Below are positions 1,711 through 50,262 of a DNA stretch of 51,481 nt, in pieces. The notes under the pieces are model-generated. The model was not told the origin of the DNA. It made no database searches and saw only the letters and a list, made by a program, of their open reading frames with translations. Source of the DNA: a virus (lineage: Duplodnaviria; Caudoviricetes); the IMG/VR virus record IMGVR_UViG_3300031259_000021, positions 1 to 51,481 of that record. The stretch is one strand, 5' to 3'. Position numbers and translations under genes: made by a program. The first letter of the stretch is position 1. Each line of letters starts with the position of its first letter.

Positions 1711-2642
1711 TCCCCCTCGAAAAGACGACAGCCGCAGCCCAGGGCCGCTGGCGGGACATCCTGCTGCACTTCGGCGTGGAGGCCCGATACCTCGAGGACC
1801 GGCACGGGCCCTGCCCGCTCTGCAGGGATGGTGAGGACAGGTTCCGCTGGGACAACACCGAAGGCAACGGCGGGTACTACTGCTCGGCCTGCGGGCCCGG
1901 CTCCGGCATGCACCTGCTCATGGTTCTGAAGGGCTGGGATTTCCCCCGGGCGGCCCGGGAGGTGGACGCCTTCCTGCCGAACGCCAAGGCGGAGCAGGTC
2001 CGGGCCGTGCGCAGCGAGGAGTCCAAGCGGGACTACATGCGGCGGATGTACACCGAGTCCCGCCCGGTGACGCCCGGGGACCCCGTGGGCCTCTACCTGG
2101 CCCGGCGGTGCGGCGACGTGGCGCAGCTGCTCGACGACATCCGGTATCACCCGGGTCTGAAGCACAGCATCGACGGCCAGGTCCACCCGGCCATGCTCGC
2201 CTTCATGGGCTGGGACCCGGTGAAGCGGAAGTTCTCCGGGATCCACCGGACCTACCTCACCACCGACGGCCGAAAGGCCGCGGTCGATCCTGTCCGGATG
2301 GAGTACGGCCCGTCCGGACCCGTGCGCCTCGGGCCGCCCGGCCCGGTCATGGGCATTGCCGAGGGCATCGAGACGGCCCTGTGCGCCCACGCGCTGTTCG
2401 GCCTGCCGGTCTGGTCCGGCATCTGCGCGAACGGGCTGAAGGCCTGGATGCCTCCGGAGGGTGTGCACCAGGTCGTCATCTTCGGCGACAACGACCCCAA
2501 CTTCGTCGGGCCGGCCGCCGCGTTCGAGAAGGCCCGGGCCTTGGCCGCCAAGGGCTACGAGGTGCAGGTCCAGATCCCCCCCATCGTGGGGCAGGACTGG
2601 GCGGATGTGTGGGCGGCAACACCGCGCACGGAGGTGGCCTGA
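1707..2642 (+). CDS. Primase (N-terminal Zn-binding domain + TOPRIM), allele A
   Basis: HGPCPLC..DRF..YCSAC zinc domain; IAEGIETAL, FGDND and DWAD TOPRIM motifs. Confidence 0.88.
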   Translation: MIPLEKTTAAAQGRWRDILLHFGVEARYLEDRHGPCPLCRDGEDRFRWDNTEGNGGYYCSACGPGSGMHLLMVLKGWDFPRAAREVDAFLPNAKAEQVRAVRSEESKRDYMRRMYTESRPVTPGDPVGLYLARRCGDVAQLLDDIRYHPGLKHSIDGQVHPAMLAFMGWDPVKRKFSGIHRTYLTTDGRKAAVDPVRMEYGPSGPVRLGPPGPVMGIAEGIETALCAHALFGLPVWSGICANGLKAWMPPEGVHQVVIFGDNDPNFVGPAAAFEKARALAAKGYEVQVQIPPIVGQDWADVWAATPRTEVA

Positions 2643-3022
2643 TGTCAGGCGGGTATTCCAAACTCTTTTCGGGCATCCTCACCAGCTCCATCTGGTGCGA
2701 GCCGGACCACGTCCTCCGCGTCTGGATCGCCATGCTGGCCCACTGCGACGCGGACGGCTACGTCCCGGGGTCGGTCCCGGGGTTCGCGTCCATGGCCCGC
2801 GTGGGCCTCCCGGAGATGCGCGAGGCTATCGCCAAGCTGGGAGCTCCCGACCCCGACAGCCGCAACCAGGACAACGAGGGCCGGCGCATCGAGACCGTGG
2901 AGGGCGGGTGGCAGATCCTCAACTATCCGATCTACCGGAACATGTGCCAGGACAAGCCCGGATCTAAGGCCAAGGCGATGCGGAAATCGAGGGCCAAAAA
3001 CAAGGGCGCTGACCCTGGGTAA
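2642..3022 (+). CDS. Phage replication initiator-like N-terminal domain, possibly truncated
   Basis: MSGGYSKLFSGILTSSIW..GW.ILNY..Y resembles phage initiator N-termini; followed directly by GTAAC repeats. Confidence 0.55.
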   Translation: MSGGYSKLFSGILTSSIWCEPDHVLRVWIAMLAHCDADGYVPGSVPGFASMARVGLPEMREAIAKLGAPDPDSRNQDNEGRRIETVEGGWQILNYPIYRNMCQDKPGSKAKAMRKSRAKNKGADPG

Positions 3023-3082
3023 CACGTTGCAAAACCGGTAACGCGTTACCTCTCGTGGTAACGCCAGGTAACACCGAGTAAC
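3018..3082. repeat. GTAAC iteron cluster, candidate replication origin
   Basis: GTAAC at 3019, 3038, 3058, 3068, 3078; perfect palindrome GGTAACGCGTTACC at 3037-3050. Confidence 0.6.
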
Positions 3083-3190
3083 GCCTGCCTCTGCTTCTGC
3101 TTCTGCCTTTGTTTCTTTTCCTGGGCCACCAGAAAAACAGGAACACGTACAGCATCCCCACCCCCCTGCACCCCCGCGAAAGGCCACCCC

Positions 3191-3544
3191 ATGAACACCA
3201 CCTCCCCCACGCTGGCCCAGGAATCCCTCACGATCATCCACCACCAGCCCACGAGGTGCTTCTTCCTCCTGAGCACCCAGCCGATCGGCTACGGCGCGCA
3301 GCGCCTGGTGCAGCAGGAGACGATCATCCCCTTCGGCTCTTTCTCTTCCCGCCCGGATCCCATCCGCCGGGCCTGGCTGTTCGTGGAGGCGAACCGCGCG
3401 ATGCACCCGCGCCCCGAACCCCCCGCGCCCCCGCCCACCCGGCCCCAGGTACTGCGGAGTGCCCTGACCCGGTGCATCGGCTGGCTGGTCCCCCGGACCC
3501 CCGCCTCTGCGCGCGAGAACGTGTCTCATCGGGTGCCCCGGTGA
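3191..3544 (+). CDS. Hypothetical protein
   Basis: ATG start; GTGA overlap with the next gene. Confidence 0.6.
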   Translation: MNTTSPTLAQESLTIIHHQPTRCFFLLSTQPIGYGAQRLVQQETIIPFGSFSSRPDPIRRAWLFVEANRAMHPRPEPPAPPPTRPQVLRSALTRCIGWLVPRTPASARENVSHRVPR

Positions 3545-3969
3545 AGCCCGAAGTGTTCGTCCTCCGGGATGACGACGACGCCGCCTCCCTCTACGCCTTC
3601 CTGAAGCTCAACCGGCGGCAGCAGGCTACCCTCGGCAAGCCGCTCTCTGTTGTCGTCTCCCTCGAGAAGACCAAGCGCAGCATCGCCGCCAACGCCTACT
3701 ACTGGGGCGTGGTCCTGAAGCAGATCGCGGAGCAGGTGTGGGTCGAGGGCACCCGCCAATACGCTCCCAAGGTCTGGCATGAGGAGTTCAAGGACCGGTT
3801 CGCGCCACGGATCGATCACCCCCTCGGCGGCAGCTACCCCATGAGCACCACGGACATGGACGACGAGCAGTTCCAGACCTTCGTCCACGAGGTGGAGGTC
3901 TTCGCGGCCCAGGAGCTGCAGGTGCGGTTCGTGGACAGCCGGGCGGTGGCGCCAGGGTGGGCGGCCTGA
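3541..3969 (+). CDS. ninB: NinB/Orf-family recombination protein
   Basis: KRSIAANAYYWG and STTDM..F..F motifs; GTG start coupled to the upstream stop. Confidence 0.7.
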   Translation: MKPEVFVLRDDDDAASLYAFLKLNRRQQATLGKPLSVVVSLEKTKRSIAANAYYWGVVLKQIAEQVWVEGTRQYAPKVWHEEFKDRFAPRIDHPLGGSYPMSTTDMDDEQFQTFVHEVEVFAAQELQVRFVDSRAVAPGWAA

Positions 3970-4508
3970 TGGGGAGGAAGTCGAAGCTCACTGAGGACCA
4001 GAAGGCCGACGTCCAGCGAAGGATGGCCGCCGGGGAATCCTGCCGCGCTCTCGCCCGGGAATTCGGGATGGCGGAGTCGAGCCTGCGAGCTTACTTTTCT
4101 GCGCGCGTGGCAAAAATCCAAACCACTGCAAAAAGGCTAGCTACGGTTGAGGATGAAGTTGCTGCGCTGCCTGTATCCGCGCAATTGACGGTGCGCGACC
4201 TCGCCGCGAACATGCGCACCACCGCCGCGAACCTGGCCGCCGTCACTGCCCTGAACACCCGGACCGCCCACCGCCTGGCAAAGCTGGCCGACAAGACCAT
4301 GGATCGGCTGGAGGATCCCGAGGTCAAGGCGGAGCGCAGGGAGGTGGAGCTGCTCAATCTCGCCACCTACGGCTCCCTCTCGCACAACCTCAGCCGGGTG
4401 GGCGTGTCCCTGGTCACCGCTGGCCACCCGCTGAAGCCAGACGAAGAGACCGGGCCGAACCTGGACGGCGCCATGGATGACCTGCGCCGCCGCTTGGGGA
4501 TGGCATGA
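3969..4508 (+). CDS. Putative terminase small subunit (N-terminal HTH)
   Basis: MGRKSKLT..GESCRALAREFG HTH; immediately upstream of and overlapping TerL. Confidence 0.65.
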   Translation: MGRKSKLTEDQKADVQRRMAAGESCRALAREFGMAESSLRAYFSARVAKIQTTAKRLATVEDEVAALPVSAQLTVRDLAANMRTTAANLAAVTALNTRTAHRLAKLADKTMDRLEDPEVKAERREVELLNLATYGSLSHNLSRVGVSLVTAGHPLKPDEETGPNLDGAMDDLRRRLGMA

Positions 4509-5830
4509 CGTCGATGGCCGAAGCGTTCCTGCAGCTGCCTGCCGCCGAGCAGGAGGCATACCTCGCGCGCATGGGCCCGGCCCTGCGCTACCGGTGGGAC
4601 TTCTGGTCGCGCCCTGAGCAGCTGGCCCCGGCCGGCGACTGGGTCTGGTGGCTGATCAAGGCGGGCCGTGGCTGGGGCAAGACCCGCACCGGCGCCGAAT
4701 GGGTGCGCGGCGAGGTTGAGGCCGGCCGGCGTGGGCGGTTCGCCCTGGTTGCCCGCACCGCGGCCGATGCCCGCGACGTGATGGTCGAAGGCGAGTCCGG
4801 GCTGCTGGCTATCTGCCCGCCCTGGCAAAGGCCCAATTACGAGCCCAGCAAGCGACGCATTACCTGGCCGAATGGGGCGCTGGCGACCGTGTACAGCGCC
4901 GACGAGCCGGACCTGCTGCGCGGCCCCCAGCACGACGGCGCCTGGGTGGATGAGCTGGCCTCCTGGCGCTTCCCCGACGCTTGGGACCAGCTGCAGTTCG
5001 GCCTGCGCCTGGGCGACCACCCGCGCGGGGTGATCACCACCACGCCTCGGCCCACGAAGCTGATCCGGGAGATTGCGGCCGCGAAGACCACGACCATCAC
5101 GAACGGCCGGAGCCTGGACAACAAGGCCAACCTGGCGCCCGAGTTCTTCACCTTCATCGTGAACAAGTACGCCGGGACCCGCCTGGGCCGCCAGGAGCTG
5201 GAGGGCGAGATCCTGGAGGACAACCCGGGCGCCCTGTGGCACCGGGGCAACTTCGACACCAACCGGGTCACCAAGATGCCCGAGCTGCGCCGCATCGTGG
5301 TGGCCGCCGACCCGGCCGTCACCTCGAACGCGGACAGCGACGAGACCGGCATCATCGTGGCCGGCCTGGGCGCCGAGAACCCGCCGCACTTCTACGTGTT
5401 GGATGACCTGAGCCTGTCGGCCTCGCCCGACGGCTGGGCCCGGGTGCTGGTGATGGCCTATCTGCGCCAGAAGGCGGACCGCATCATCGGCGAGGTGAAC
5501 AACGGCGGCGACCTCATCGAGACGATCATCCGCCATGTGGAGATCGACGGCAAGAAGGCGGGCCTGAACGCCAGCTACAAGGCCGTGCACGCCTCCCGGG
5601 GCAAGGCCATCCGCGCCGAGCCCATCTCCGCCCTGTACGAGCAGAACCGGGTGCACCACGTGGGCGCCTTCCCGGTGTTGGAGGACCAGCTTTGCGACTG
5701 GGACCCCGCCACCAGCACCGACAGCCCCGACCGCCTCGACGCCCTGGTCTGGGCCCTGACCGAACTGTCCGGCGACTCAACCGGGCCCATCAAGATCAAC
5801 GCTGGCCTGCTGGGAAGGATGCGCCGATGA
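4505..5830 (+). CDS. terL: Terminase large subunit
   Basis: AGRGWGKTR Walker A, LRGPQ, WVDE Walker B, TTTP, AADPA and DRLDALVWA nuclease motifs. Confidence 0.95.
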   Translation: MTSMAEAFLQLPAAEQEAYLARMGPALRYRWDFWSRPEQLAPAGDWVWWLIKAGRGWGKTRTGAEWVRGEVEAGRRGRFALVARTAADARDVMVEGESGLLAICPPWQRPNYEPSKRRITWPNGALATVYSADEPDLLRGPQHDGAWVDELASWRFPDAWDQLQFGLRLGDHPRGVITTTPRPTKLIREIAAAKTTTITNGRSLDNKANLAPEFFTFIVNKYAGTRLGRQELEGEILEDNPGALWHRGNFDTNRVTKMPELRRIVVAADPAVTSNADSDETGIIVAGLGAENPPHFYVLDDLSLSASPDGWARVLVMAYLRQKADRIIGEVNNGGDLIETIIRHVEIDGKKAGLNASYKAVHASRGKAIRAEPISALYEQNRVHHVGAFPVLEDQLCDWDPATSTDSPDRLDALVWALTELSGDSTGPIKINAGLLGRMRR

Positions 5831-6018
5831 AGAACCTGCTGCAGACCTGGGAGATGGAGCCCGGCCCGGGCGGCGTGCCGGTGGTGCCCGCCGCGGTAGA
5901 CCACGACCGCCGCCTGCTGCCCCTCCTGGACGCCTATGGCAACCACATTCCCGACAAACGGCCGCGGGCCGGGTTCGGGGCTCACCTTTACGACCACGAA
6001 GGAAGGATGCGCCGATGA
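5827..6018 (+). CDS. Small hypothetical protein flanked by 18-bp direct repeats
   Basis: ATGA overlaps at both ends; MKNLLQTW...GRMRR. Confidence 0.55.
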   Translation: MKNLLQTWEMEPGPGGVPVVPAAVDHDRRLLPLLDAYGNHIPDKRPRAGFGAHLYDHEGRMRR

Positions 6019-6416
6019 CCAGATTCCAGCACGTTCCCCATCCCCACATCGAAGCACGGAAGGACCAGGCGCCGCCCCCACTGCTCCCCCGCCACCGCCT
6101 TGATCGGATCAACGACACCCTGGCCGTGCGCATCACCAACGCGGTGGGCTCCATGTGGTGCGCCTACGCCTTCGGCCTCCTGGCCCTGGTCAGCCTGCCT
6201 GACGCCATCAAGGGCGGCACCGCGGCGCTCATCGCCTGGATCGCCCAGACGTTCCTGCAGCTGGTGCTTCTGTCCATCATCCTGGTGGGCCAGAAGGTGG
6301 CCGGCGCCGCCTCCGACGCCCAGGCCGCCGCCACCTACCGGGATACCGAGGCCATCCTGCACGAGCTGCTGGAGTTGCAGCGCCACCTGCACGCCCAGGA
6401 CGGGGAGGGCGAATGA
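6015..6416 (+). CDS. DUF1003-like two-TM membrane protein
   Basis: LAVRIT..VGSMW and LQLVLLSIILVGQ motifs; two hydrophobic segments. Confidence 0.6.
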   Translation: MTRFQHVPHPHIEARKDQAPPPLLPRHRLDRINDTLAVRITNAVGSMWCAYAFGLLALVSLPDAIKGGTAALIAWIAQTFLQLVLLSIILVGQKVAGAASDAQAAATYRDTEAILHELLELQRHLHAQDGEGE

Positions 6417-6601
6417 CCGACAAGAACTGGATCAGCACCGGCAAGGCCAACAAGATCTTCAACCAGGGCATCGATGACCGCACCTTCCGCGACAACTTCC
6501 GCGACTGCGTGCAGAACCACCTCACCCCGGGCGGACAGTTCCGCTGGTTCCGGCCCGAGGTCGAGCAGCTGCGCGACGCGCCCAAGGACAAGGCGAGCTG
6601 A
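6413..6601 (+). CDS. Small Xis/MerR-like DNA-binding protein
   Basis: WISTGKA..TPGGQFRW..EVEQL winged-HTH pattern. Confidence 0.55.
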   Translation: MTDKNWISTGKANKIFNQGIDDRTFRDNFRDCVQNHLTPGGQFRWFRPEVEQLRDAPKDKAS

Positions 6602-6640
6602 AACACGGAAAAGGCGGAAAACCAGGAAAACACGGAAGTA
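6602..6640 (+). promoter_or_regulatory. Four 9-bp-period GGAAA repeats upstream of the lysis/structural operon
   Basis: GGAAA at 6607, 6616, 6625 and GGAAG at 6634, in an intergenic gap. Confidence 0.5.
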
Positions 6641-6694
6641 ACATCCTGGATGCCTTCATGCGCGGGCGTGAGTCTTGGGTCATCCGAGGTTCAG

Positions 6695-7219
6695 ATGGCC
6701 GAGTTCATGCGCGCGTTGCCCTACGTGCTCGACAATGAGGGAGCCAATCTGCCTCACGGCGGAAAGTGCGACATCCCCGGCGATTCCGGCGGCCGCACGA
6801 ACTGTGGCGTCAGCACCCCAGCCCTTCTGGATTTCAACCGCCGGCATCCCGAGCTGGGGTTCCCCGATGACCCTTGGGCGCTGACGCCCGACCAGATCGC
6901 CACGTTCTACCATATGGACTTCTGGGGCTACGACGGCATCGCCGCCCAGCCCATTGCCACGAAGCTCATGGACATGGGCGTGAACATGGGCCGCGGCACG
7001 GCTGTGGAACTGGCGCAGAAAATCCTGGGCGTAACCGTTGACGGTGGATGGGGCCCTGCCTCTCAGGCGGCCGCCAACGCCCAGGATCCAGACGCGTTGC
7101 TTGACCACCTGGCCCAGGCCTCCACCGACCACTACAACGCCATCGTCGCCCGCAAGCCGGCGGACGCGAAGTTCCTGCCTGACTGGCTCCGGCGCGCCGC
7201 CAGGGTGCCGAATGCCTGA
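6695..7219 (+). CDS. Endolysin, glycoside hydrolase 108 family with peptidoglycan-binding C-terminus
   Basis: F..ALPYVL.NEG, D.GGRTNCGV, DMGVNMG, VDG..GP and KFLPDWLRR motifs. Confidence 0.88.
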   Translation: MAEFMRALPYVLDNEGANLPHGGKCDIPGDSGGRTNCGVSTPALLDFNRRHPELGFPDDPWALTPDQIATFYHMDFWGYDGIAAQPIATKLMDMGVNMGRGTAVELAQKILGVTVDGGWGPASQAAANAQDPDALLDHLAQASTDHYNAIVARKPADAKFLPDWLRRAARVPNA

Positions 7220-7544
7220 CGCATGTGCGACCCCGGAGACCCTTACGACGAGCGCCCCTACGACTGGCCGTACTGGCCTGTTCCGGGATCTGGTCAGGCG
7301 GGACCGGCCGGAGAGCCCCGAAGCGTTCGTGCTGATGGGCACGACCGGCTTCCTGGGCTCTGGATTCCTGATGATGGCCTTTGCGGCCGCTCGTCGGATC
7401 TGGATCAAGGGTGACCTGGGCGCCGGAGCCATGAGCGCAATTACCGCCACAGCCGCCTCGCTGGCACTGCTGATCGCCTACGTCAAGGGCCGGCGCCGGC
7501 CGGACGACGTTTCCCCTTCCACCCCATTCCAGGAGCCCCAGTGA
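7212..7544 (+). CDS. Holin candidate (2 TM)
   Basis: Two hydrophobic helices and a basic C-terminus; overlaps the endolysin end. Confidence 0.5.
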   Translation: MPDACATPETLTTSAPTTGRTGLFRDLVRRDRPESPEAFVLMGTTGFLGSGFLMMAFAAARRIWIKGDLGAGAMSAITATAASLALLIAYVKGRRRPDDVSPSTPFQEPQ

Positions 7545-7777
7545 AAACTCTTGAGCAGTACCTCCTCGACGCGGCCGACACCACCACGACCATGCACATG
7601 CTGGTCATGAAGCCCCGGGCCACTTCCACGGCGCCGGACGGCACGGTGACGCAGGCGCCGGTTTGTTTCTACATCCACCCCTCGGGCGTCGACGGCGAGA
7701 CCCTGGACTTCGCGGTGGACGGGAACACCCTGTCCCAGGATCCCAGCGTGACCTACGCCGAGGAACCGGCCCAGTGA
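7541..7777 (+). CDS. Hypothetical protein
   Basis: AGGAG RBS, GTG start, coupled on both sides. Confidence 0.65.
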   Translation: MKTLEQYLLDAADTTTTMHMLVMKPRATSTAPDGTVTQAPVCFYIHPSGVDGETLDFAVDGNTLSQDPSVTYAEEPAQ

Positions 7778-8481
7778 CCGCCAAGGGCTACCTCATCGCC
7801 GCCGTCCTGCTGCTCGCGGGCGGCGCCGGCCTGGGCTGGATGGCCCGCGGCTGGGGTAGCAAGAGCCAGCCCGCCGACCTGGCCCAGGCGGCCCAGCAGG
7901 ACCAGACCGGGGCGAATGCCTACGACGCGGGGGTGCAGCATGGCCAGGAAGCGAAGACCACGGCCCCGGCGGTCGCGAAGGACGAAGTTGCAGTTGCTGA
8001 CAAGGGCGCAAAGCTGGCCCAACTGCAGGCTGAGGTCGCATACCTTCGGAAACTGCAGCCCGGTGCTGTTCGCCCTTCCGGCGCTCCCGGTGCCCCGGCT
8101 GCTGGTGCTCTGCCGCTGCCTGTGGGAACGACTCTGGATGCGGCCAAGGACGAGCTGATCGATGCCGAGGACGCCGACCGCGGGGCCCTGAACCAGGACC
8201 TGGCCGACACCAAGACCCAGCTCGGCCAGACCCAGGCGGCGGCCGCCTCGTTCCAGCTGTCCGCCGACAGCTACAGGGCCGAGACCGTCACCCTGCGCAG
8301 CGCCATCGTCCCGGCCCGGCCCACGGCAGCCGGCATCATCTACGGCACCAGCCAGACCATCGGCGCATTCATCGAACGGGACTTCGGACCCATCCGCGCC
8401 GGCGTGGACGTGGTCCGCCGTGTGCTGCCCGCCGGCCCCGCAACCGTCGACGCCACCGCCCGCGTGGGCTGGTGCTTCTGA
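7774..8481 (+). CDS. Spanin-like protein (N-terminal TM, coiled coils, C-terminal beta region)
   Basis: KGYLIAAVLLLAGGAGLGW TM; Ala/Gln heptads; ends RVGWCF; lies in the lysis cluster. Confidence 0.55.
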   Translation: MTAKGYLIAAVLLLAGGAGLGWMARGWGSKSQPADLAQAAQQDQTGANAYDAGVQHGQEAKTTAPAVAKDEVAVADKGAKLAQLQAEVAYLRKLQPGAVRPSGAPGAPAAGALPLPVGTTLDAAKDELIDAEDADRGALNQDLADTKTQLGQTQAAAASFQLSADSYRAETVTLRSAIVPARPTAAGIIYGTSQTIGAFIERDFGPIRAGVDVVRRVLPAGPATVDATARVGWCF

Positions 8482-8491
8482 GGATACATCC

Positions 8492-8926
8492 ATGCCCGAG
8501 ATCATCACCTCCCACCTGACCCACATCTACTGGGCCCTCTTCTGCCTCCTGGTGGCCGTGCTGGTCCACTTCTGGCCAACCATCAAGACCTGGTGGGCCG
8601 CCCGAGCTGCTGCCGCTGCCGCCGAAGAGAAGCGCATCAAGGCGGCGCTGGAGCTGGCGGCCGGGGACGTGGAATCTGTCTACAGCCGCATCAAGGGCGA
8701 CCTGCAGGCCTACGTTGCCGGGACCGAGGCCAAGATCAAGGCGCTCGAGGCCAAGATCGATGCCCAGGTGAAGGCCGACGAGGCGAAGGTGCAAACTGCT
8801 GCCGCTCCTCTGGCCCAGGCGCCTGCATCCGGGCCTACGCCAGCATCCGACCCGGGTCCTGATCCCATCGCCAGCCCCGAAGCCGCGCAGGTCCATGGCT
8901 GGGCTCCTCCCGTGGCCCAGGCATAA
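8492..8926 (+). CDS. TM + coiled-coil protein (lysis region)
   Basis: IYWALFCLLVAVLVHFW TM, coiled coil, Pro/Ala tail. Confidence 0.6.
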   Translation: MPEIITSHLTHIYWALFCLLVAVLVHFWPTIKTWWAARAAAAAAEEKRIKAALELAAGDVESVYSRIKGDLQAYVAGTEAKIKALEAKIDAQVKADEAKVQTAAAPLAQAPASGPTPASDPGPDPIASPEAAQVHGWAPPVAQA

Positions 8927-8928
8927 GG

Positions 8929-9273
8929 ATGTCGCCCATCGCTTTCGCCCTCTCAATTCTGACCCTGGCCGTCACGTCGGTTCTGATCATCTGGCAAACC
9001 CTGCGGGCTGACCGGCGGGAGCGGAAGCGAGAGCGGGAGCAGTCCGAGCTGGACCGCGAGAAAGAGCAGAAGAGACAGCTCCAGCAGATGGAGCAAATGA
9101 TTCAGACCATGGTGGTGGAGAAGATCGAGGCCGCTTTCAGCGAGATCGAAAAGCTTCAGCACTCCATGGGCGATGTCAAGGAATCCCACGCCCACATGAA
9201 GGGTTTCCTCCAGGGCCGCGGGATCCTCGTCCCCGATCTGGCTGCTGACGACTTGAAGGGGACCCGGGCTTGA
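8929..9273 (+). CDS. TM + coiled-coil protein (holin/antiholin-like candidate)
   Basis: N-terminal TM followed by a highly charged helix. Confidence 0.55.
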   Translation: MSPIAFALSILTLAVTSVLIIWQTLRADRRERKREREQSELDREKEQKRQLQQMEQMIQTMVVEKIEAAFSEIEKLQHSMGDVKESHAHMKGFLQGRGILVPDLAADDLKGTRA

Positions 9274-31962: not shown

Positions 31963-33048
31963 TTACTGCAACTGAAGCCAATAGTAATAGATAAAGAAGT
32001 TCCCAGAGCTATCGGCGGGATAACTGGACTTGAACACTACATTCCCGCTGCCGATCACAATGGGGTATTCCATCGTGTATTGAGGAGTGGCGGATAGCAT
32101 TAGGAAATCCGTCGTGGTCGGATTGTAGGTCATGCTGATCTGCTGCGATGCGCCAGCCGCAATGGTGTATGTGTTCAGCGTGCCAATGAAGTTGGAATAT
32201 GTGTATTGATTCCCGAAGTCGCTAATGGTGAGAGGCACGTTTCCCTTGTTAACCACCGTGTAGACCGCCTTGGTGGGGTCGATTGCCAGGCTGCCGGTGA
32301 AGCTCGTATTGACCTGGTACCACCCACTCAGCGGGAATTCATTCAGGTCAGACCCGACAGGGGGGAGCGCAGCATAAAATGGGTTAGACAACAGCACTGG
32401 CGCGGCTTGCGTTGCCGACTGCACCATCAAATCGACCCCCGCGTAATCCTCGAGGGTGAACTGTGCGACCTGGACGTTGAGATCGATTTCGCACGTGGCC
32501 GAAATCGTGGCCCCGGTCGTGTCAGTGCCGCTCGCCGTGAGGTGGAAGACCAGCGCACCAGCGGGCAGAAGCGGGGAGGTGCCGTGGCCGTTCTGCCCGA
32601 CGCCGTGGATCACCTGAACCTCGGTGAGCGGCACGATGGAGCCCGTTCCCTGGAGGGGCAGGACCGCAATCGTTCCCGGCGTGACGATGACCGCTGGGTT
32701 ATCCGCCGTCACCACGACGTTGTTCACGATGGCGGTGCCTGTGTTTTCGATCTGGAACAAGTAGGTCGCCGACGATGGGATGTTGCCGAAATTGAACACC
32801 GTGGCGGCGGGCGTGGTCACATCAGCCCGTTCCAGCATGGTCATTACCTTTGCCGTCGCGGGGGTTGCGTGAACCGCCGTGAAGGCTATGGCGCCAGAAA
32901 CGGTGGGCGTCGGGGTCGGTGTCGGAGTGGGCGTCGGGGTTGGGGTCGGCGTGATGATCCCACCCGGAGCAGCCGTGCTACCACCTCCGCTACCGCAGCC
33001 GACGGCAAGCGCCAACACAAAGACGCAAAGAAAACTTGGGATTCTCAT
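31963..33048 (-). CDS. Lipoprotein moron with PT linker and Ig-like beta-rich domains
   Basis: AAGGAGG RBS; MRIPSFLCVFVLALAVG-C lipobox; (TP)n linker; visibly lower GC. Confidence 0.8.
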   Translation of the reverse strand: MRIPSFLCVFVLALAVGCGSGGGSTAAPGGIITPTPTPTPTPTPTPTPTVSGAIAFTAVHATPATAKVMTMLERADVTTPAATVFNFGNIPSSATYLFQIENTGTAIVNNVVVTADNPAVIVTPGTIAVLPLQGTGSIVPLTEVQVIHGVGQNGHGTSPLLPAGALVFHLTASGTDTTGATISATCEIDLNVQVAQFTLEDYAGVDLMVQSATQAAPVLLSNPFYAALPPVGSDLNEFPLSGWYQVNTSFTGSLAIDPTKAVYTVVNKGNVPLTISDFGNQYTYSNFIGTLNTYTIAAGASQQISMTYNPTTTDFLMLSATPQYTMEYPIVIGSGNVVFKSSYPADSSGNFFIYYYWLQLQ

Positions 33049-39764: not shown

Positions 39765-40439
39765 CTAGGCGATGGCAGCCGCGGTGACGGCCTCCAGGAA
39801 GCCATCCGGGATGCAGACGTAGTAGGTGAGGCTGGGGAAGTCGACGCGGTTCCAGCCGCCCGAGCTGTCCTTGACCGTGCCGGCCTCCTCGGGGATCCAG
39901 GGCGAGACCTTGCTGCCCGCGGCCGTCATCTTGACCTGGTCGCCGCCCTTGAAGGCCGGCTGCTCCTCTACGGCCGGAGGGGCCGGCGGCTGGGCCGCCC
40001 GGACCTGCTTGGCCATCTCGATCACGCCCAGGTAGCCGCCCAGGTGCACCGGGTTGCCCGTGTGGGTGCGGCGCACGGCCGCCTCGAACTCCTCCAACGT
40101 CCCGTTGAAGCACCCGCAGACGATGCGGTCCTCCTGGAGGTAGATCTGGGTGTAGCCGCACCGGGAGCCGATGGGCCCGACGCTCAGGAAGGGCTTGTAG
40201 TTCTTCGCGCCGTCGAGGTTCGCGCCGTAGAGGTTCGCGCCGTAGAGGTTCGCGCCGTCGAGGTTCGCGCCGTAGAGGTTCGCGCAACGGAGGTTCGCGC
40301 CGTACCCGAACTTGACATCCCGCAGGTCACAGGATGAGAAATCAATCCGGGCGCCCTCCTCATGGTCAGAGTCCAGCCAGAGCTTGCCCTGGGCCAGGAC
40401 TTGGTCCGCTTCTTCCTGGGTGTAGCGCTTCATTGCCAT
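39765..40439 (-). CDS. Pentapeptide-repeat protein
   Basis: ANL(Y/D)G repeats followed by SVGPIGSR..CGCF.GTLEEF domain. Confidence 0.85.
   Translation of the reverse strand: MAMKRYTQEEADQVLAQGKLWLDSDHEEGARIDFSSCDLRDVKFGYGANLRCANLYGANLDGANLYGANLYGANLDGAKNYKPFLSVGPIGSRCGYTQIYLQEDRIVCGCFNGTLEEFEAAVRRTHTGNPVHLGGYLGVIEMAKQVRAAQPPAPPAVEEQPAFKGGDQVKMTAAGSKVSPWIPEEAGTVKDSSGGWNRVDFPSLTYYVCIPDGFLEAVTAAAIA
40204..40304. repeat. 15-bp tandem repeat (about 6.7 copies) encoding the pentapeptides
   Basis: TTCGCGCCGT(A/C)GAGG units. Confidence 0.9.
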
Positions 40440-40557
40440 TGATGTCCCTTTCGTTGAGGGGTTTGGGCATGCCGAAGGCACGGCTCCTGTGAGCTGGGCT
40501 TGGGCGGTTGGGGTGGACTCGGGTTCCGTTCAGGTTGGTTAGGGATCCAACATCCAA

Positions 40558-43727: not shown

Positions 43728-45248
43728 ATGGACTTCGGAGGAGAATTCCCACCACCCCGTGATTTCCAGGAGAAGACCCTCGAATCCTTGAGACAAGGGA
43801 TCCGCGAGGGCCACCGCCGGCAATGTGCCATGGCGCCCACCGGCGGAGGCAAGACCTACATCGCCATGCGTGTCATTGAGCGGGCCCTCGCCAAAAGCCG
43901 GCGCGCCCTGTTCATCGCCGACCGGATCACCCTCATCAACCAGACCTCGGAGACGGCCGAGCGGTACGGCCTCTGGAACCACGGCATCATCCAGGCCAGC
44001 AACCCCCGGATGGACCTGGCCCGTCCGTTTCAGATCGCCAGCCTTCAGACCCTGGCGGCCCGCGGCTGGCCCAAGGACATCGACGTGATCGTGGTCGACG
44101 AGTGCCACACCCAGTACAAAACCTGGGTCGACTACGTCACCAGCGACGAATGCACGGCGCAGGTGATCGGCCTCAGCGCCACACCGTTCTCCAAAGGCCT
44201 GGGCAAGGTCTTCACGCGCCTGGTCAACGCCGCCACCATGCACGAGCTGACCGAGCTGGGGATCCTGGTGCCCATGCGCCTGTTCTCCTGCCGGAAGCCG
44301 GATATGTCCGGGGCGGCGACGGTGGGCGGGGTCGCCAACGGGGAGTGGACGGCCGAGGCCGCCAGCGAGCGGGAGATCGCCATCGTCGGCGACGTCGTCA
44401 CCGAGTGGACCCGCCACGCCTTCAACCTGAAGACCATCGTCTTCGGCGCCACCATCGTGCACTGCGAGGAGCTGTGCAAGCAGTTCCTCGCGTGCGGGGT
44501 CCAGGCCGCGGTCTTCACGGCCAACACCACCGAGGAGGAGCGGGCGGTGCTGCTGGAGGAATACCGGCGCCACGATTCCAGCCTACGCGTCCTGATCAGC
44601 GTCGAGGCCCTGGCCAAGGGCTTCGATGTGCCCGACGTCGAATGCGTCTGCGACTGCCGGCCGCTCAGGAAAAGCCTCTCCACTGCCATCCAAATGTGGG
44701 GCAGGGGCCTCCGCTCCTCCAAGGAGACCGGGAAGACCGAGTGCCTGCTGCTGGACTTCTCCGGCAACATCATCCGGTTCATGGCCGACTACGAGCGGAT
44801 CTTCTTCGAGGGCCTGGACAAGCTGGACGACGGGGAAAAGCTCGACAAGGAGGTTCGCAAGGACGAGGAGCACGAGCCCAGGCCCTGCCCGGCCTGCGGC
44901 TACACCCCCTTCGCTAAGAAGTGCATGCGCTGCGGCCACGAGGTCAAGCCGGTGTGCCTGGTGGAGCACCTGCCCGGGCACATGGAGGAGGTCATCCTCT
45001 GCGGCAAGAAGAAGCTGGCCAACGACAAGATGGACCTGTGGACCCAGGTCGCCACCTACGCCCGCCAGAGGGCCAAGCCCGGCGGCAACCCGGCCGGCAG
45101 GGCCGCCCACCTGTTCAAGGACATCACCGGCGAGTGGCCGCCCCGCGGCTGCAAGTTCGAGACCACGCCCGAGGTACAGCCCACCCGGAACACCATGGAC
45201 AAGATCCGCTCCCTGAGCATCGCCTTCGCGCACAGGAGGGCGTCATGA
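43728..45248 (+). CDS. SF2 DEAD/DEAH-box helicase, allele B
   Basis: Same motifs as 103-1710; lacks the Cys4 insert. Confidence 0.92.
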   Translation: MDFGGEFPPPRDFQEKTLESLRQGIREGHRRQCAMAPTGGGKTYIAMRVIERALAKSRRALFIADRITLINQTSETAERYGLWNHGIIQASNPRMDLARPFQIASLQTLAARGWPKDIDVIVVDECHTQYKTWVDYVTSDECTAQVIGLSATPFSKGLGKVFTRLVNAATMHELTELGILVPMRLFSCRKPDMSGAATVGGVANGEWTAEAASEREIAIVGDVVTEWTRHAFNLKTIVFGATIVHCEELCKQFLACGVQAAVFTANTTEEERAVLLEEYRRHDSSLRVLISVEALAKGFDVPDVECVCDCRPLRKSLSTAIQMWGRGLRSSKETGKTECLLLDFSGNIIRFMADYERIFFEGLDKLDDGEKLDKEVRKDEEHEPRPCPACGYTPFAKKCMRCGHEVKPVCLVEHLPGHMEEVILCGKKKLANDKMDLWTQVATYARQRAKPGGNPAGRAAHLFKDITGEWPPRGCKFETTPEVQPTRNTMDKIRSLSIAFAHRRAS

Positions 45249-46210
45249 TCCCCCTCGAAAAGACAACGGCCGCGGCCCAGGGCCGGTGGCGGGACATCCT
45301 GCTGCACTTCGGCGTGGAGGCCCGATACCTCGAGGACCGGCACGGGCCCTGCCCGCTCTGCAGGGACGGGGAGGACCGCTTCCGCTGGGACAACACCGAC
45401 GGCAACGGCGGGTACTACTGCTCTGCCTGCGGGCCCGGCTCGGGCATGCACATGCTCATGGTCCTGAAGGGCTGGGACTTCCCCCGGGCGGCCAAGGAGG
45501 TGGACGCCTTCTTGCCGAACGCCAAGGTGGAGCAGGCCCGGGCCGTGCGCAGCGAAAAGTCAAAGGAGGACGCCATTCTCCAAGTCTGGAACACGTCGCG
45601 CCGCTTGGCCCTTGGAGATCCCGTGTGGACCTACCTGGAGTCCAGGTGCGGACCTCTCGACCCACCACCCAGGAACATCCGGTTCCACCCCTCCCTGCGC
45701 CACAGCGTGGATGGAGGGAACCATCCAGTGATGGTCGCCAGGTCCTTCTTTGCCGACGGAACGCCGGGCGGATTGCATCGAACGTTCCTCACCCCAGATG
45801 GAAGGAAAGCACAGGTAGACCCCGTTCGGCAGGCCCTGGGCAAGCTGCGGCGCGAAGCGGATGGGCCTGGGGCTGCAATTCCGTTGACCCTCAAGGCCGA
45901 TCGCCTGGGGATCGCTGAAGGCATCGAGACGGCGATCTGCGCCGGCATTCTGCACGACATGCCGGTTTGGGCCGCCATAAGCGCTAACGGGCTGAGGGCC
46001 TGGGTCCCTCCGGAGGGTGTTCGATCCGTGGTGGTCTTCGGGGACAACGACGCAAACCGTGTCGGCCAGAAGGCCGCCTGGGCATGTGCGTCCCATATGG
46101 CCGACTTGGGCCTGGACGTAGAGGTGTGCATCCCTCCCATCCCTGGGCAGGACTGGCAAGACGTATGGGCCGTGCAGCACGCGCAGCCCAAGCTGCAGGG
46201 GGTGGCCTGA
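45245..46210 (+). CDS. Primase (Zn + TOPRIM), allele B
   Basis: N-terminus nearly identical to 1707-2642; divergent TOPRIM half with AEGIETA, FGDND, DWQD. Confidence 0.88.
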   Translation: MIPLEKTTAAAQGRWRDILLHFGVEARYLEDRHGPCPLCRDGEDRFRWDNTDGNGGYYCSACGPGSGMHMLMVLKGWDFPRAAKEVDAFLPNAKVEQARAVRSEKSKEDAILQVWNTSRRLALGDPVWTYLESRCGPLDPPPRNIRFHPSLRHSVDGGNHPVMVARSFFADGTPGGLHRTFLTPDGRKAQVDPVRQALGKLRREADGPGAAIPLTLKADRLGIAEGIETAICAGILHDMPVWAAISANGLRAWVPPEGVRSVVVFGDNDANRVGQKAAWACASHMADLGLDVEVCIPPIPGQDWQDVWAVQHAQPKLQGVA

Positions 46211-46590
46211 TGTCAGGCGGGTATTCCAAACTCTTTTCGGGCATCCTCACCAGCTCCATCTGGTGCGAGCCGGACCACGTCCTCCGCGTCTGGATCGCCA
46301 TGCTGGCCCACTGCGACGCGGACGGCTACGTCCCGGGGTCGGTCCCGGGGTTCGCGTCCATGGCCCGCGTGGGCCTCCCGGAGATGCGCGAGGCTATCGC
46401 CAAGCTGGGAGCTCCCGACCCCGACAGCCGCAACCAGGACAACGAGGGCCGGCGCATCGAGACCGTGGAGGGCGGGTGGCAGATCCTCAACTATCCGATC
46501 TACCGGAACATGTGCCAGGACAAGCCCGGATCTAAGGCCAAGGCGATGCGGAAATCGAGGGCCAAAAACAAGGGCGCTGACCCTGGGTAA
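46210..46590 (+). CDS. Initiator-like protein (copy of 2642-3022)
   Basis: Identical translation. Confidence 0.55.
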   Translation: MSGGYSKLFSGILTSSIWCEPDHVLRVWIAMLAHCDADGYVPGSVPGFASMARVGLPEMREAIAKLGAPDPDSRNQDNEGRRIETVEGGWQILNYPIYRNMCQDKPGSKAKAMRKSRAKNKGADPG

Positions 46591-46758
46591 CACGTTGCAA
46601 AACCGGTAACGCGTTACCTCTCGTGGTAACGCCAGGTAACACCGAGTAACGCCTGCCTCTGCTTCTGCTTCTGCCTTTGTTTCTTTTCCTGGGCCACCAG
46701 AAAAACAGGAACACGTACAGCATCCCCACCCCCCTGCACCCCCGCGAAAGGCCACCCC

Positions 46759-47112
46759 ATGAACACCACCTCCCCCACGCTGGCCCAGGAATCCCTCACG
46801 ATCATCCACCACCAGCCCACGAGGTGCTTCTTCCTCCTGAGCACCCAGCCGATCGGCTACGGCGCGCAGCGCCTGGTGCAGCAGGAGACGATCATCCCCT
46901 TCGGCTCTTTCTCTTCCCGCCCGGATCCCATCCGCCGGGCCTGGCTGTTCGTGGAGGCGAACCGCGCGATGCACCCGCGCCCCGAACCCCCCGCGCCCCC
47001 GCCCACCCGGCCCCAGGTACTGCGGAGTGCCCTGACCCGGTGCATCGGCTGGCTGGTCCCCCGGACCCCCGCCTCTGCGCGCGAGAACGTGTCTCATCGG
47101 GTGCCCCGGTGA
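46759..47112 (+). CDS. Hypothetical protein (copy of 3191-3544)
   Basis: Identical translation. Confidence 0.6.
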   Translation: MNTTSPTLAQESLTIIHHQPTRCFFLLSTQPIGYGAQRLVQQETIIPFGSFSSRPDPIRRAWLFVEANRAMHPRPEPPAPPPTRPQVLRSALTRCIGWLVPRTPASARENVSHRVPR

Positions 47113-47537
47113 AGCCCGAAGTGTTCGTCCTCCGGGATGACGACGACGCCGCCTCCCTCTACGCCTTCCTGAAGCTCAACCGGCGGCAGCAGGCTACCCT
47201 CGGCAAGCCGCTCTCTGTTGTCGTCTCCCTCGAGAAGACCAAGCGCAGCATCGCCGCCAACGCCTACTACTGGGGCGTGGTCCTGAAGCAGATCGCGGAG
47301 CAGGTGTGGGTCGAGGGCACCCGCCAATACGCTCCCAAGGTCTGGCATGAGGAGTTCAAGGACCGGTTCGCGCCACGGATCGATCACCCCCTCGGCGGCA
47401 GCTACCCCATGAGCACCACGGACATGGACGACGAGCAGTTCCAGACCTTCGTCCACGAGGTGGAGGTCTTCGCGGCCCAGGAGCTGCAGGTGCGGTTCGT
47501 GGACAGCCGGGCGGTGGCGCCAGGGTGGGCGGCCTGA
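47109..47537 (+). CDS. ninB: NinB-family protein (copy)
   Basis: Identical to 3541-3969. Confidence 0.7.
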   Translation: MKPEVFVLRDDDDAASLYAFLKLNRRQQATLGKPLSVVVSLEKTKRSIAANAYYWGVVLKQIAEQVWVEGTRQYAPKVWHEEFKDRFAPRIDHPLGGSYPMSTTDMDDEQFQTFVHEVEVFAAQELQVRFVDSRAVAPGWAA

Positions 47538-48076
47538 TGGGGAGGAAGTCGAAGCTCACTGAGGACCAGAAGGCCGACGTCCAGCGAAGGATGGCCGCCG
47601 GGGAATCCTGCCGCGCTCTCGCCCGGGAATTCGGGATGGCGGAGTCGAGCCTGCGAGCTTACTTTTCTGCGCGCGTGGCAAAAATCCAAACCACTGCAAA
47701 AAGGCTAGCTACGGTTGAGGATGAAGTTGCTGCGCTGCCTGTATCCGCGCAATTGACGGTGCGCGACCTCGCCGCGAACATGCGCACCACCGCCGCGAAC
47801 CTGGCCGCCGTCACTGCCCTGAACACCCGGACCGCCCACCGCCTGGCAAAGCTGGCCGACAAGACCATGGATCGGCTGGAGGATCCCGAGGTCAAGGCGG
47901 AGCGCAGGGAGGTGGAGCTGCTCAATCTCGCCACCTACGGCTCCCTCTCGCACAACCTCAGCCGGGTGGGCGTGTCCCTGGTCACCGCTGGCCACCCGCT
48001 GAAGCCAGACGAAGAGACCGGGCCGAACCTGGACGGCGCCATGGATGACCTGCGCCGCCGCTTGGGGATGGCATGA
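47537..48076 (+). CDS. Putative terminase small subunit (copy)
   Basis: Identical to 3969-4508. Confidence 0.65.
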   Translation: MGRKSKLTEDQKADVQRRMAAGESCRALAREFGMAESSLRAYFSARVAKIQTTAKRLATVEDEVAALPVSAQLTVRDLAANMRTTAANLAAVTALNTRTAHRLAKLADKTMDRLEDPEVKAERREVELLNLATYGSLSHNLSRVGVSLVTAGHPLKPDEETGPNLDGAMDDLRRRLGMA

Positions 48077-49398
48077 CGTCGATGGCCGAAGCGTTCCTGC
48101 AGCTGCCTGCCGCCGAGCAGGAGGCATACCTCGCGCGCATGGGCCCGGCCCTGCGCTACCGGTGGGACTTCTGGTCGCGCCCTGAGCAGCTGGCCCCGGC
48201 CGGCGACTGGGTCTGGTGGCTGATCAAGGCGGGCCGTGGCTGGGGCAAGACCCGCACCGGCGCCGAATGGGTGCGCGGCGAGGTTGAGGCCGGCCGGCGT
48301 GGGCGGTTCGCCCTGGTTGCCCGCACCGCGGCCGATGCCCGCGACGTGATGGTCGAAGGCGAGTCCGGGCTGCTGGCTATCTGCCCGCCCTGGCAAAGGC
48401 CCAATTACGAGCCCAGCAAGCGACGCATTACCTGGCCGAATGGGGCGCTGGCGACCGTGTACAGCGCCGACGAGCCGGACCTGCTGCGCGGCCCCCAGCA
48501 CGACGGCGCCTGGGTGGATGAGCTGGCCTCCTGGCGCTTCCCCGACGCTTGGGACCAGCTGCAGTTCGGCCTGCGCCTGGGCGACCACCCGCGCGGGGTG
48601 ATCACCACCACGCCTCGGCCCACGAAGCTGATCCGGGAGATTGCGGCCGCGAAGACCACGACCATCACGAACGGCCGGAGCCTGGACAACAAGGCCAACC
48701 TGGCGCCCGAGTTCTTCACCTTCATCGTGAACAAGTACGCCGGGACCCGCCTGGGCCGCCAGGAGCTGGAGGGCGAGATCCTGGAGGACAACCCGGGCGC
48801 CCTGTGGCACCGGGGCAACTTCGACACCAACCGGGTCACCAAGATGCCCGAGCTGCGCCGCATCGTGGTGGCCGCCGACCCGGCCGTCACCTCGAACGCG
48901 GACAGCGACGAGACCGGCATCATCGTGGCCGGCCTGGGCGCCGAGAACCCGCCGCACTTCTACGTGTTGGATGACCTGAGCCTGTCGGCCTCGCCCGACG
49001 GCTGGGCCCGGGTGCTGGTGATGGCCTATCTGCGCCAGAAGGCGGACCGCATCATCGGCGAGGTGAACAACGGCGGCGACCTCATCGAGACGATCATCCG
49101 CCATGTGGAGATCGACGGCAAGAAGGCGGGCCTGAACGCCAGCTACAAGGCCGTGCACGCCTCCCGGGGCAAGGCCATCCGCGCCGAGCCCATCTCCGCC
49201 CTGTACGAGCAGAACCGGGTGCACCACGTGGGCGCCTTCCCGGTGTTGGAGGACCAGCTTTGCGACTGGGACCCCGCCACCAGCACCGACAGCCCCGACC
49301 GCCTCGACGCCCTGGTCTGGGCCCTGACCGAACTGTCCGGCGACTCAACCGGGCCCATCAAGATCAACGCTGGCCTGCTGGGAAGGATGCGCCGATGA
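48073..49398 (+). CDS. terL: Terminase large subunit (copy)
   Basis: Identical to 4505-5830. Confidence 0.95.
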   Translation: MTSMAEAFLQLPAAEQEAYLARMGPALRYRWDFWSRPEQLAPAGDWVWWLIKAGRGWGKTRTGAEWVRGEVEAGRRGRFALVARTAADARDVMVEGESGLLAICPPWQRPNYEPSKRRITWPNGALATVYSADEPDLLRGPQHDGAWVDELASWRFPDAWDQLQFGLRLGDHPRGVITTTPRPTKLIREIAAAKTTTITNGRSLDNKANLAPEFFTFIVNKYAGTRLGRQELEGEILEDNPGALWHRGNFDTNRVTKMPELRRIVVAADPAVTSNADSDETGIIVAGLGAENPPHFYVLDDLSLSASPDGWARVLVMAYLRQKADRIIGEVNNGGDLIETIIRHVEIDGKKAGLNASYKAVHASRGKAIRAEPISALYEQNRVHHVGAFPVLEDQLCDWDPATSTDSPDRLDALVWALTELSGDSTGPIKINAGLLGRMRR

Positions 49399-49586
49399 AG
49401 AACCTGCTGCAGACCTGGGAGATGGAGCCCGGCCCGGGCGGCGTGCCGGTGGTGCCCGCCGCGGTAGACCACGACCGCCGCCTGCTGCCCCTCCTGGACG
49501 CCTATGGCAACCACATTCCCGACAAACGGCCGCGGGCCGGGTTCGGGGCTCACCTTTACGACCACGAAGGAAGGATGCGCCGATGA
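49395..49586 (+). CDS. Small hypothetical protein (copy of 5827-6018)
   Basis: Identical. Confidence 0.55.
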   Translation: MKNLLQTWEMEPGPGGVPVVPAAVDHDRRLLPLLDAYGNHIPDKRPRAGFGAHLYDHEGRMRR

Positions 49587-50169: not shown

Positions 50170-50262
50170 AACACGGAAAAGGCGGAAAACCAGGAAAACA
50201 CGGAAGTAACATCCTGGATGCCTTCATGCGCGGGCGTGAGTCTTGGGTCATCCGAGGTTCAG

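Follow-up and report, generated by a model that had tools for sequence, protein, structure and literature searches.

Results

The gene at 7774-8481 and the anatomy of its product

We analysed a stretch of viral DNA of 51,481 nucleotides (Duplodnaviria; Caudoviricetes; IMG/VR virus record IMGVR_UViG_3300031259_000021, positions 1 to 51,481; the whole stretch is called the window below), with attention to a gene at 7774-8481 (+) that encodes a 235-amino-acid (aa) envelope protein (P0001/P0002). This gene stands on the + strand in a row of genes in the order terminase, two small open reading frames (ORFs), endolysin, a holin-like ORF with two transmembrane (TM) segments, a 78-aa ORF, the 235-aa gene, two ORFs for TM and coiled-coil proteins, and portal. 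At 7774, its GTG start codon and the TGA stop of the preceding ORF overlap as GTGA; GAGGA is located 9-14 nt upstream, and the stop codon of the gene lies at 8479-8481. Homologues of the 235-aa protein begin at the equivalent Met.

An AlphaFold2 model of the protein was built from a 15-sequence alignment, with a mean predicted local distance difference test score (pLDDT) of 71 and a predicted template modelling score (pTM) of 0.44. The model begins with a hydrophobic TM helix (residues 4-26; 7783-7851, +), followed by helix 1 (residues 32-94; 7867-8055, +; pLDDT 70-89), a hinge rich in Pro, Gly and Ala that is also evident from the sequence (residues 95-117; 8056-8124, +; pLDDT 57-63), and helix 2, of about the same length as helix 1 (residues 118-178; 8125-8307, +; pLDDT 80-91). 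The alignment and the model together delimit a conserved four-strand C-terminal domain ending in W-C-F (residues 184-235; 8323-8478, +), with strands predicted at 184-190, 195-203, 207-216 and 224-233. A preliminary description of this locus had claimed an N-terminal TM segment, helices split by Pro/Gly, about four strands and a terminal Phe; all of these were borne out by the sequence and the model with exact coordinates, and the strings quoted for the strands were found at 186-191 (AGIIYG), 196-204 (IGAFIERDF), 207-213 (IRAGVDV) and 227-235 (ATARVGWCF). A Foldseek search with the model gave no match at E<=0.001, and the top rows were antiparallel helical hairpins, suggesting that the two equal-length helices were modelled folded back on each other.

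Helix 4-26 with K/R ahead of the hydrophobic run would make the 235-aa protein a type II inner-membrane protein, and the helix is probably an uncleaved signal anchor. Among the 122 aligned members of the family, the uncharged N-terminal run has a median length of 21 residues and is preceded by at least one K/R in 115. The 235-aa protein has no Cys within its first 233 residues. In 20 of the 122 members, a lipobox-like Cys ends the N-terminal hydrophobic run, often as x-Y-S-C or x-W-S-C (e.g. P0017, P0035, P0049, P0054, P0064 and P0098; loci L006 and L009). This motif recalls the unusual A-W-A-C lipobox of PB1-type unimolecular spanins (u-spanins), and the Cys could, judged from the sequence, provide a lipid anchor or an intermolecular disulphide.

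A family with two architectures and one conserved C-terminal domain

A word-seeded search recovered 17 relatives, all of them metagenome or virus proteins. Conservation is by far the highest over the C-terminal ~52 residues, which include most of the 35 columns that are invariant among 15 homologues. A HMMER profile of the C-terminal domain, built from 12 loci and searched against 1.84 billion cluster representatives (clusters at 50% identity), matched 177 clusters at E<=1e-3 and 52 at E<=1e-10. The matched proteins are almost all 170-250 aa long, and in nearly all of the 150 matches listed the domain ends at the last residue or a few residues short of the protein end.

We found two architectures in the family, alike in the N-terminal hydrophobic segment and the C-terminal domain but different in the middle. 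The middle is a coiled coil in the type represented by the 235-aa protein (class 1) and a non-helical stretch of ~100 residues in the beta-rich type (class 2). An AlphaFold2 model of a beta-rich member (pLDDT 91.3, pTM 0.73) shows a TM helix, three strands and then the same four terminal strands.

No known family for the C-terminal domain emerged from the collections searched. The Pfam scan of the 122 members gave no family covering the C-terminal domain, and the 235-aa protein matched nothing in Pfam at E<=0.1. Weak matches to Rz-like spanin families of PHROG occurred in 4 of the 122 members, and the match of the 235-aa protein to phrog_2466 (Rz-like) was marginal (E 0.013) and covered residues 2-88 only. 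The profile of the C-terminal domain matched nothing among PDB sequences at E<=10, a tblastn search with the 235-aa protein and the distant members P0069 and P0132 gave no match in 50,697 phage records, and a pattern scan of GTDB species genomes gave 76 pattern matches, none of which was confirmed. In the ESM Atlas, residues 176-235 matched viral clusters only (0.92), with DUF6808 at 0.88 as a lead only; in BFVD, one viral protein was matched at E 5e-4 with a root-mean-square deviation (rmsd) of 25 A, which is uninformative.

Barrel-like pattern and predicted self-association of the C-terminal domain

The 122-member alignment shows a strict two-residue periodicity in all four strands. The face designated "out" has a mean hydropathy of +1.8, is variable with interchange among A, V, L and I, and is bounded by W184 (111/122), Y190 (100/122), R/Y/K at 202, W/I/V/L at 233 and F/W at column 235 (121/122). 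The "in" face has a mean hydropathy of -1.13, and conservation within the whole protein peaks in its residues G187, G197, W/F199, E/D201, D203, R208, G210, D/E212, R/K230 and G232. In the last strand, columns 225, 227, 229, 231, 233 and 235 are hydrophobic and columns 226, 230, 232 and 234 are polar or Gly, and the actual last residue is F in 101 members and W in 13 (114 aromatic of 122). The alternation over 37 strand columns of the 122 members was matched by 4 of 20,000 permutations, and that in the 235-aa protein alone by 451 of 20,000, figures that are generous, as the strand register was fixed after inspection of the data.

Transmembrane barrels have a variable hydrophobic face, aromatic ends, a conserved face of Gly and charged residues, and a terminal aromatic residue, whereas in a soluble sandwich it is the core that is conserved. 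A terminal aromatic residue together with an alternating last strand is also the signal recognised by the barrel-assembly machinery (BAM), and the family alignment displays both features of this C-terminal beta-signal.

In a complex prediction with three copies of residues 160-235 and a 122-row alignment (median of three runs, with three controls), the three-copy fold scored 0.64 as compared with 0.00 for the best control; among solved structures, 20 of 30 pairs of one chain and 1 of 23 single chains attained the mark used. At least 87% of the contacts agreed among the runs, and the partner pLDDT was at least 74. In the confident contacts, strand 4 (224-235) pairs with strand 1 of the neighbour (184-193) as an antiparallel ladder on both edges of the scored copy, which is exactly what a continuous 12-strand sheet or barrel would need. 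Self-association by strand pairing is thus predicted by the model. As a check for the 12-strand barrel that had been suggested for this domain, the result supports the strand 4/strand 1' pairing, but the contacts are those of the scored copy only. Because the polar face is conserved, the hydrophobic face variable, the ends aromatic, the last residue F or W, and strand 4 joined to strand 1', the C-terminus seems unlike a soluble domain; a soluble C-terminal fold, which would speak against a membrane bridge, did not appear.

When the beta-rich model was searched with Foldseek, the membrane anchors of Hia and AtaA were matched with probability 0.96-0.99 and an rmsd of 3.5-4.2 A. These matches have 22-28% identity over about 50 columns, at E values of only 0.12-0.25.

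The lysis cassette and its counterparts in relatives

The endolysin gene of the window (6650-7219, +) encodes Glyco_hydro_108 and PG_binding_3 domains (Pfam E 4.3e-11 and 1.8e-09, both past the cut-off), and also matches the PHROG endolysin family phrog_315 (E 1.5e-26). The start of the holin-like ORF (7212-7544, +) overlaps the endolysin stop (ATGCCTGA). Its 110-aa product has two hydrophobic segments in a Kyte-Doolittle scan and a sole, sub-threshold Pfam match to Phage_holin_3_6 (E 0.02), and a comparable two-TM ORF occupies the same slot in L003, L004, L010 and L015. The small soluble 78-aa ORF (7541-7777, +) has a weak match to phrog_38873 and none in the Pfam scan; its slot is filled by a sequence-unrelated small ORF in L003 and L014. 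Between the 235-aa gene and the portal lie the genes for a 144-aa protein (8492-8926, +), with a coiled coil and a Pro-rich C-terminal part, and for a 114-aa coiled-coil protein (8929-9273, +), both with an N-terminal TM segment. The former gave no significant family in Pfam or PHROG, and the latter only weakly matched several PHROG families of Rz-like spanins and holins (E about 0.01). The two genes follow the family gene also in L003, L004, L010 and L014, but not in L015 or the genome loci L024 and L025, and their products may be further components of the same lysis device.

Among the relatives, with the synteny of L005-L009 read in part, the family of the peptidoglycan hydrolase encoded upstream varies: GH108 in the phage of the 235-aa gene and in L025, Peptidase_M15_3 in L003, Tlde1/YkuD in L004, L014 and L015, and Phage_lysozyme in L016. 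For the beta-rich type, a query with a 12-sequence subset gave 19 viral loci, 16 of them with upstream sequence; the scan covered 27 ORFs, 25 of them from 52 upstream candidate ORFs. Phage_lysozyme, Peptidase_M15_3 or GH19 was found within about 1.3 kb upstream in 12 of the 16, DUF5675 in two, and only holin or DUF7940 matches in the other two. These counts include the near-duplicates L060/L062 and L071/L074; L065 and L016 are one and the same contig. A gene that stays while the endolysin family beside it is swapped is the signature of a lysis cassette, and a position of the family gene in this cassette is strongly supported. The change of hydrolase beside a constant gene is the strongest evidence for a role in lysis, as an association read from gene order.

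Several of the neighbouring genes have features of their own. In L016 (4865-5626) and L024 (9068-9958, -), a Phage_lysozyme endolysin behind a lipoprotein signal peptide is encoded directly upstream of the family gene, and the lysozymes of L058, L071 and L074 have an N-terminal hydrophobic segment with a signal-anchor-release-like look. A DUF7940 protein with a hydrophobic segment is encoded immediately upstream of the family gene in L060 (3519-3875), L066 (1435-1851), L070 (3390-3797) and L075 (3456-3686), and may be a holin-like or accessory lysis protein. The small Tlde1/YkuD-like proteins (L,D-transpeptidase fold) in the endolysin slot of L004 (4987-5382), L014 (4995-5408) and L015 (5169-5564) suggest an endolysin of the L,D-endopeptidase type.

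Search for a lipoprotein partner

Lipoboxes were searched in all frames with a heuristic regular expression, permissive enough to accept unusual boxes such as A-W-A-C, as described in the accessible text of the 2018 spanin survey (PMC6139136). No lipoprotein ORF was found on the + strand between 5800 and 9500, in agreement with the preliminary claim that no convincing lipobox-bearing outer-membrane spanin (o-spanin) is nested in or adjacent to the gene. When the gene and 900 nt downstream were scanned on the + strand in 27 loci, 26 gave no credible o-spanin, and the single lipobox match, a 38-aa ORF in L058, is implausible, as it would leave a mature part of 11 aa. A real o-spanin thus appeared neither in the phage of the 235-aa gene nor, in credible form, in 25 of the 26 related loci.

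Two candidates for the partner were set aside. An 80-aa ORF embedded in the +1 frame (7916-8158) was considered as an Rz1-like gene, but it has no acceptable lipobox (L-V-L-C; no Cys in L004). This frame is also open at the same place in L003, L004, L010, L014 and L015, where its similarity arises because it tracks the main frame in GC-rich DNA. The only convincing lipoprotein of the phage in the regular-expression scan is a 361-aa protein encoded at 31963-33048 (-), which was rejected as an o-spanin because it lies 23 kb away on the opposite strand beside the integrase and has Ig-like domains. In this Pro-Thr-rich protein, a clear lipobox is accompanied by a long Pro-Thr repeat and by an Ig-like domain (HYDIN/VesB/DUF1573); its gene adjoins that of the integrase, and it is likely a moron expressed in lysogeny. 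A comparable Pro-Thr-rich lipoprotein is encoded near the lysis cassette in L004 (2902-4002).

Host range and the phage record

The relatives of the portal protein come mainly from phages of Gram-negative hosts, all ten of the commonest host genera being Gram-negative (best identity 48%). A host could not be named via the portal, as the sole matches, to Enterobacter (50%) and Aquirhabdus (46%), are too distant. In G106, a genome of Pseudomonadota, the phylum of Aquirhabdus, we found two full-length copies of the family (E 5e-13 and 6e-7), and at both loci (L024 and L025) the family gene closes a cassette that also contains endolysin and holin-like genes. Evidence of a monoderm host, which the preliminary description had named as contrary to its proposal, did not appear in these data, and the phage carrying the 235-aa gene probably infects a diderm.

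The record also contains genes for a terminase, a portal, a Mu-F-like protein, a DUF3383 sheath, an E217-type baseplate hub and an integrase, a content that marks the phage, as far as its sequence tells, as temperate and myovirus-like. An exact direct repeat of 5,281 bp is present at both ends of the record (2633-7913 = 46201-51481), and the helicase genes that flank the repeat (76-1710 and 43728-45248) are similar but non-identical. Because of these two features, the record looks circular or concatemeric, read beyond its own start and possibly with two variants mixed; the genome unit is ~43.6 kb long. Owing to the repeat, the first 46 codons of the 235-aa gene recur at the record end as a second, truncated copy (51342-51481, +; residues 1-46, 100% identity). 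A pentapeptide-repeat protein is encoded at 39765-40481 (-), within the early or lysogeny part of the phage genome.

Discussion

A single-chain spanin analogue as the preferred reading

The data establish the domain architecture of the 235-aa protein, the conservation across its family and the lysis-cassette position of its gene, and no lipoprotein partner was detectable. We propose, with a probability of roughly 45%, that the protein is a single-chain analogue of spanins whose outer-membrane anchor is a beta-barrel; insertion into the outer membrane, spanning of the periplasm, collapse into a hairpin and a role in lysis would all be parts of this proposal. The preliminary description had read the protein as a bridge between the two membranes through an oligomeric beta-barrel. 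None of the three observations that it named as fatal to that reading appeared, and self-pairing of the strands is predicted, but the analogy with trimeric-autotransporter anchors that it drew is a structural one, without detectable sequence homology.

The anchors of trimeric autotransporters (YadA, Hia and AtaA) resemble the C-terminal domain in that each chain has four short strands and short loops and ends in an aromatic residue, as well as in the pairing of strand 4 with strand 1 of the neighbour in the three-copy fold and in a weak local fold similarity. They differ in that the family is without an exported passenger and that the helix before the strands is tethered to the inner membrane here. 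In solved autotransporter anchors a helix runs through the pore, whereas this is not so in the present family. TonB, TolA and VirB10 have an N-terminal TM anchor, a long and partly Pro-rich periplasmic spacer and a C-terminal domain that acts at the outer membrane, a layout that the 235-aa protein would share. TonB and TolA bind outer-membrane partners without inserting, and VirB10 inserts helices within a large secretion machine. No Pfam match to the families of these three proteins was found in the 235-aa protein or the 122 members.

With the two-component spanins (lambda Rz/Rz1), the family shares the slot after endolysin and holin; the Rz-like half, as depicted in the accessible text of the 2018 survey, likewise starts with a TM anchor, which two hinged periplasmic helices follow (PMC6139136). 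Unlike these systems, it has no embedded, overlapping or adjacent lipoprotein partner in the regular-expression scans, and where the C-terminus of an inner-membrane spanin (i-spanin) binds Rz1, the 235-aa protein instead has a conserved beta C-terminus of its own. The u-spanin of T1, gp11, is likewise a single chain proposed to connect both membranes, and its periplasmic domain, predicted as beta-sheet in the accessible part of that survey (PMC6139136), is resembled by the beta-rich subgroup. The 235-aa protein differs from gp11 in combining an N-terminal TM helix with a C-terminal amphipathic beta module; it has neither the N-terminal lipobox Cys of u-spanins nor a C-terminal TM helix, its end consisting of four amphipathic strands that carry conserved charged residues. 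The "disruptin" gp28 of phiKT is, in the part of the report available to us (10.1101/515445), an alternative means of outer-membrane disruption in phages without spanins, but it is a cationic antimicrobial peptide, as compared with a membrane-anchored protein of 235 aa with a folded beta domain.

A number of points weigh against the proposal of a two-membrane bridge. None of the 122 members matches YadA_anchor (PF03895) or the outer-membrane protein (OMP) families of Pfam. When the 122-member alignment was compared by hhalign with 19 YadA_anchor regions taken from sampled genomes, the probability was 1.3% over 11 columns, as compared with 0.2-0.4% for reversed controls; the likeness to trimeric-autotransporter anchors is therefore one of design and not of detectable descent. 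VIA, a fold search independent of Foldseek, ranked soluble methyltransferases beside membrane beta proteins, with a best Z of 5.7; its matches included gasdermin pores, AtaA (Z 5.2), KdgM (Z 5.1), Hia (Z 5.0) and OprF (Z 4.5), at values where Z under 8 may mean a common arrangement. The strand region of the class-1 model has a pLDDT of 61-68 only, the predicted strands run for just 7-10 residues, and two conserved positions, R202 and R/Q215, belong to the "out", lipid-facing register. The three-copy fold reports contacts for the scored copy only, so that closure of a ring is not visible from it; its score was calibrated on pairs, with three copies as the sole stoichiometry tried, and the pass may stem from likeness to the solved autotransporter anchors. 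The N-terminal anchor may differ in the 20 of 122 members with a lipobox-like Cys, and the system may not be single-component, because two TM/coiled-coil genes follow in the closest relatives. A full-length match was present in only one of 401 sampled genomes of the phylum of Aquirhabdus, three others giving short partial matches only (E about 0.002-0.003), and there was no further full-length copy among 301 genomes of the order of G106; the family thus occurs in diderms, though rarely among sequenced species representatives. Finally, we know of no precedent for a chain embedded in both membranes at once, in the inner one through a helix and in the outer one through a beta-barrel.

Alternative explanations

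The same cassette context, anchor and spacer would also suit an i-spanin-like protein that docks a host outer-membrane component in the place of an o-spanin, be it BamA, by mimicry of the beta-signal and strand augmentation, or else another OMP, Lpp or Pal. The conserved terminal aromatic residue and alternating last strand are what BAM recognises, and the conserved polar face (E201, D203, R208, D212 and R230) could be a binding surface. A mimicry of this sort has been described, as far as the available part of the preprint goes, for protein antibiotics that inhibit BAM through a C-terminal-peptide beta-signal (10.64898/2026.09.25.754295). We nevertheless regard docking as rather unlikely, since four strands with a hydrophobic face and aromatic ends throughout the family exceed what a docking peptide needs, and the three-copy fold gives confident self-pairing of both free edges. 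The extreme conservation of the OMP-like C-terminus, the length of the spacer and the fact that the cassette offers no other candidate for outer-membrane disruption likewise speak against a protein that merely travels with the cassette and does not disrupt the outer membrane, whether it acts in lysis timing, together with the holin, in superinfection exclusion or, as an envelope protein, on another periplasmic target. Extra membrane proteins are known in cassettes: Lcc6 of LambdaSo acts at the holin level and LysZ of corynephages targets lipoglycans, according to the accessible parts of the respective reports (10.1101/2024.01.23.576932; 10.1101/2025.06.24.661397). Both were set aside as counterparts, as neither Lcc6 (65 aa) nor LysZ resembles the 235-aa protein in what is accessible of them, and the 50,697 phage records in which the tblastn search with three members found no match include actinophages. 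An explanation of this kind appears improbable to us.

It is still less probable that the N-terminal signal is cleaved, or is a lipoprotein signal, so that the mature protein would be an outer-membrane-anchored coiled coil, equivalent to an o-spanin with a protein anchor; by the same improbable account, the product of 8492-8926, that of 8929-9273 or both would be its i-spanin partners in the periplasm. These two TM and coiled-coil genes lie directly downstream, here and in L003, L004, L010 and L014, the 114-aa product has the weak Rz-like spanin matches in PHROG (E about 0.01), and a lipobox-like x-S-C follows the hydrophobic run in 20 of the 122 members. That an OMP might act as an o-spanin was moreover foreseen in the accessible text of the 2018 survey (PMC6139136). 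In L015, the beta-rich subgroup, L024 and L025, however, such partners are missing and the family gene ends the cassette. The hydrophobic run, with a median of 21 uncharged residues, is also long, and it is followed by aromatic residues and Pro rather than by an A-x-A site, as judged from N-termini inspected by eye.

Proposed mechanism

For the single-chain spanin analogue with a beta-barrel anchor, we envisage that the N-terminal helix would stay in the inner membrane, with the remainder of the chain in the periplasm, where the two helices of ~9 nm each and the hinge would cross through the peptidoglycan mesh. By arithmetic, two helices and a 23-residue hinge would reach about 20-26 nm. This should be enough for a typical Gram-negative periplasm. 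The C-terminal module, with its OMP-type signal of alternating hydrophobics and a G-W-x-F end, would insert in the outer membrane, and copies may join edge to edge, strand 4 to the next strand 1, into a small barrel that would have 12 strands if trimeric. The mesh would keep the complex extended, as is proposed for Rz/Rz1 in the accessible text of the survey (PMC6139136). Once the endolysin has cleared the wall, the equal-length helices could fold to a hairpin and draw the anchors and membranes together, leading to rupture or fusion. Hairpin collapse is an idea from the literature on Rz spanins.

Implications

The accessible text of the 2018 survey puts at about 13% the share of phages of Gram-negative hosts without a recognisable spanin, and states that its criteria left aside that "an OMP could act as an o-spanin"; the word "beta-barrel" does not occur in that text (PMC6139136). 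Among the titles and opening lines of abstracts found in the openly accessible part of the published literature, we saw no spanin or lysis protein with a beta-barrel or OMP-type anchor. The present family, which has no Pfam or PHROG family of its own, is a concrete and widespread candidate for the role of outer anchor. It is possible, if somewhat doubtful, that it represents a third architectural class of spanins and the first family integral to both membranes of diderms, by an inner helix and a BAM-assembled homo-oligomeric mini beta-barrel. With similar reserve, we suggest that a collapsible coiled-coil or beta-rich spacer may join the two anchors, and that the barrel-assembly machine of the host may plant the outer one.

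On the best available reading, the family would, if confirmed, be a new variant within the spanin kind. Should this be true, the compact self-assembling outer-membrane domain could serve as a display or anchoring module, annotators would gain a searchable C-terminal signature, and a part of the "spanin-less" gap would be filled. It would also pose a new problem of cell biology, namely how a chain tethered to the inner membrane is handed through the cell wall to the barrel-assembly machine.

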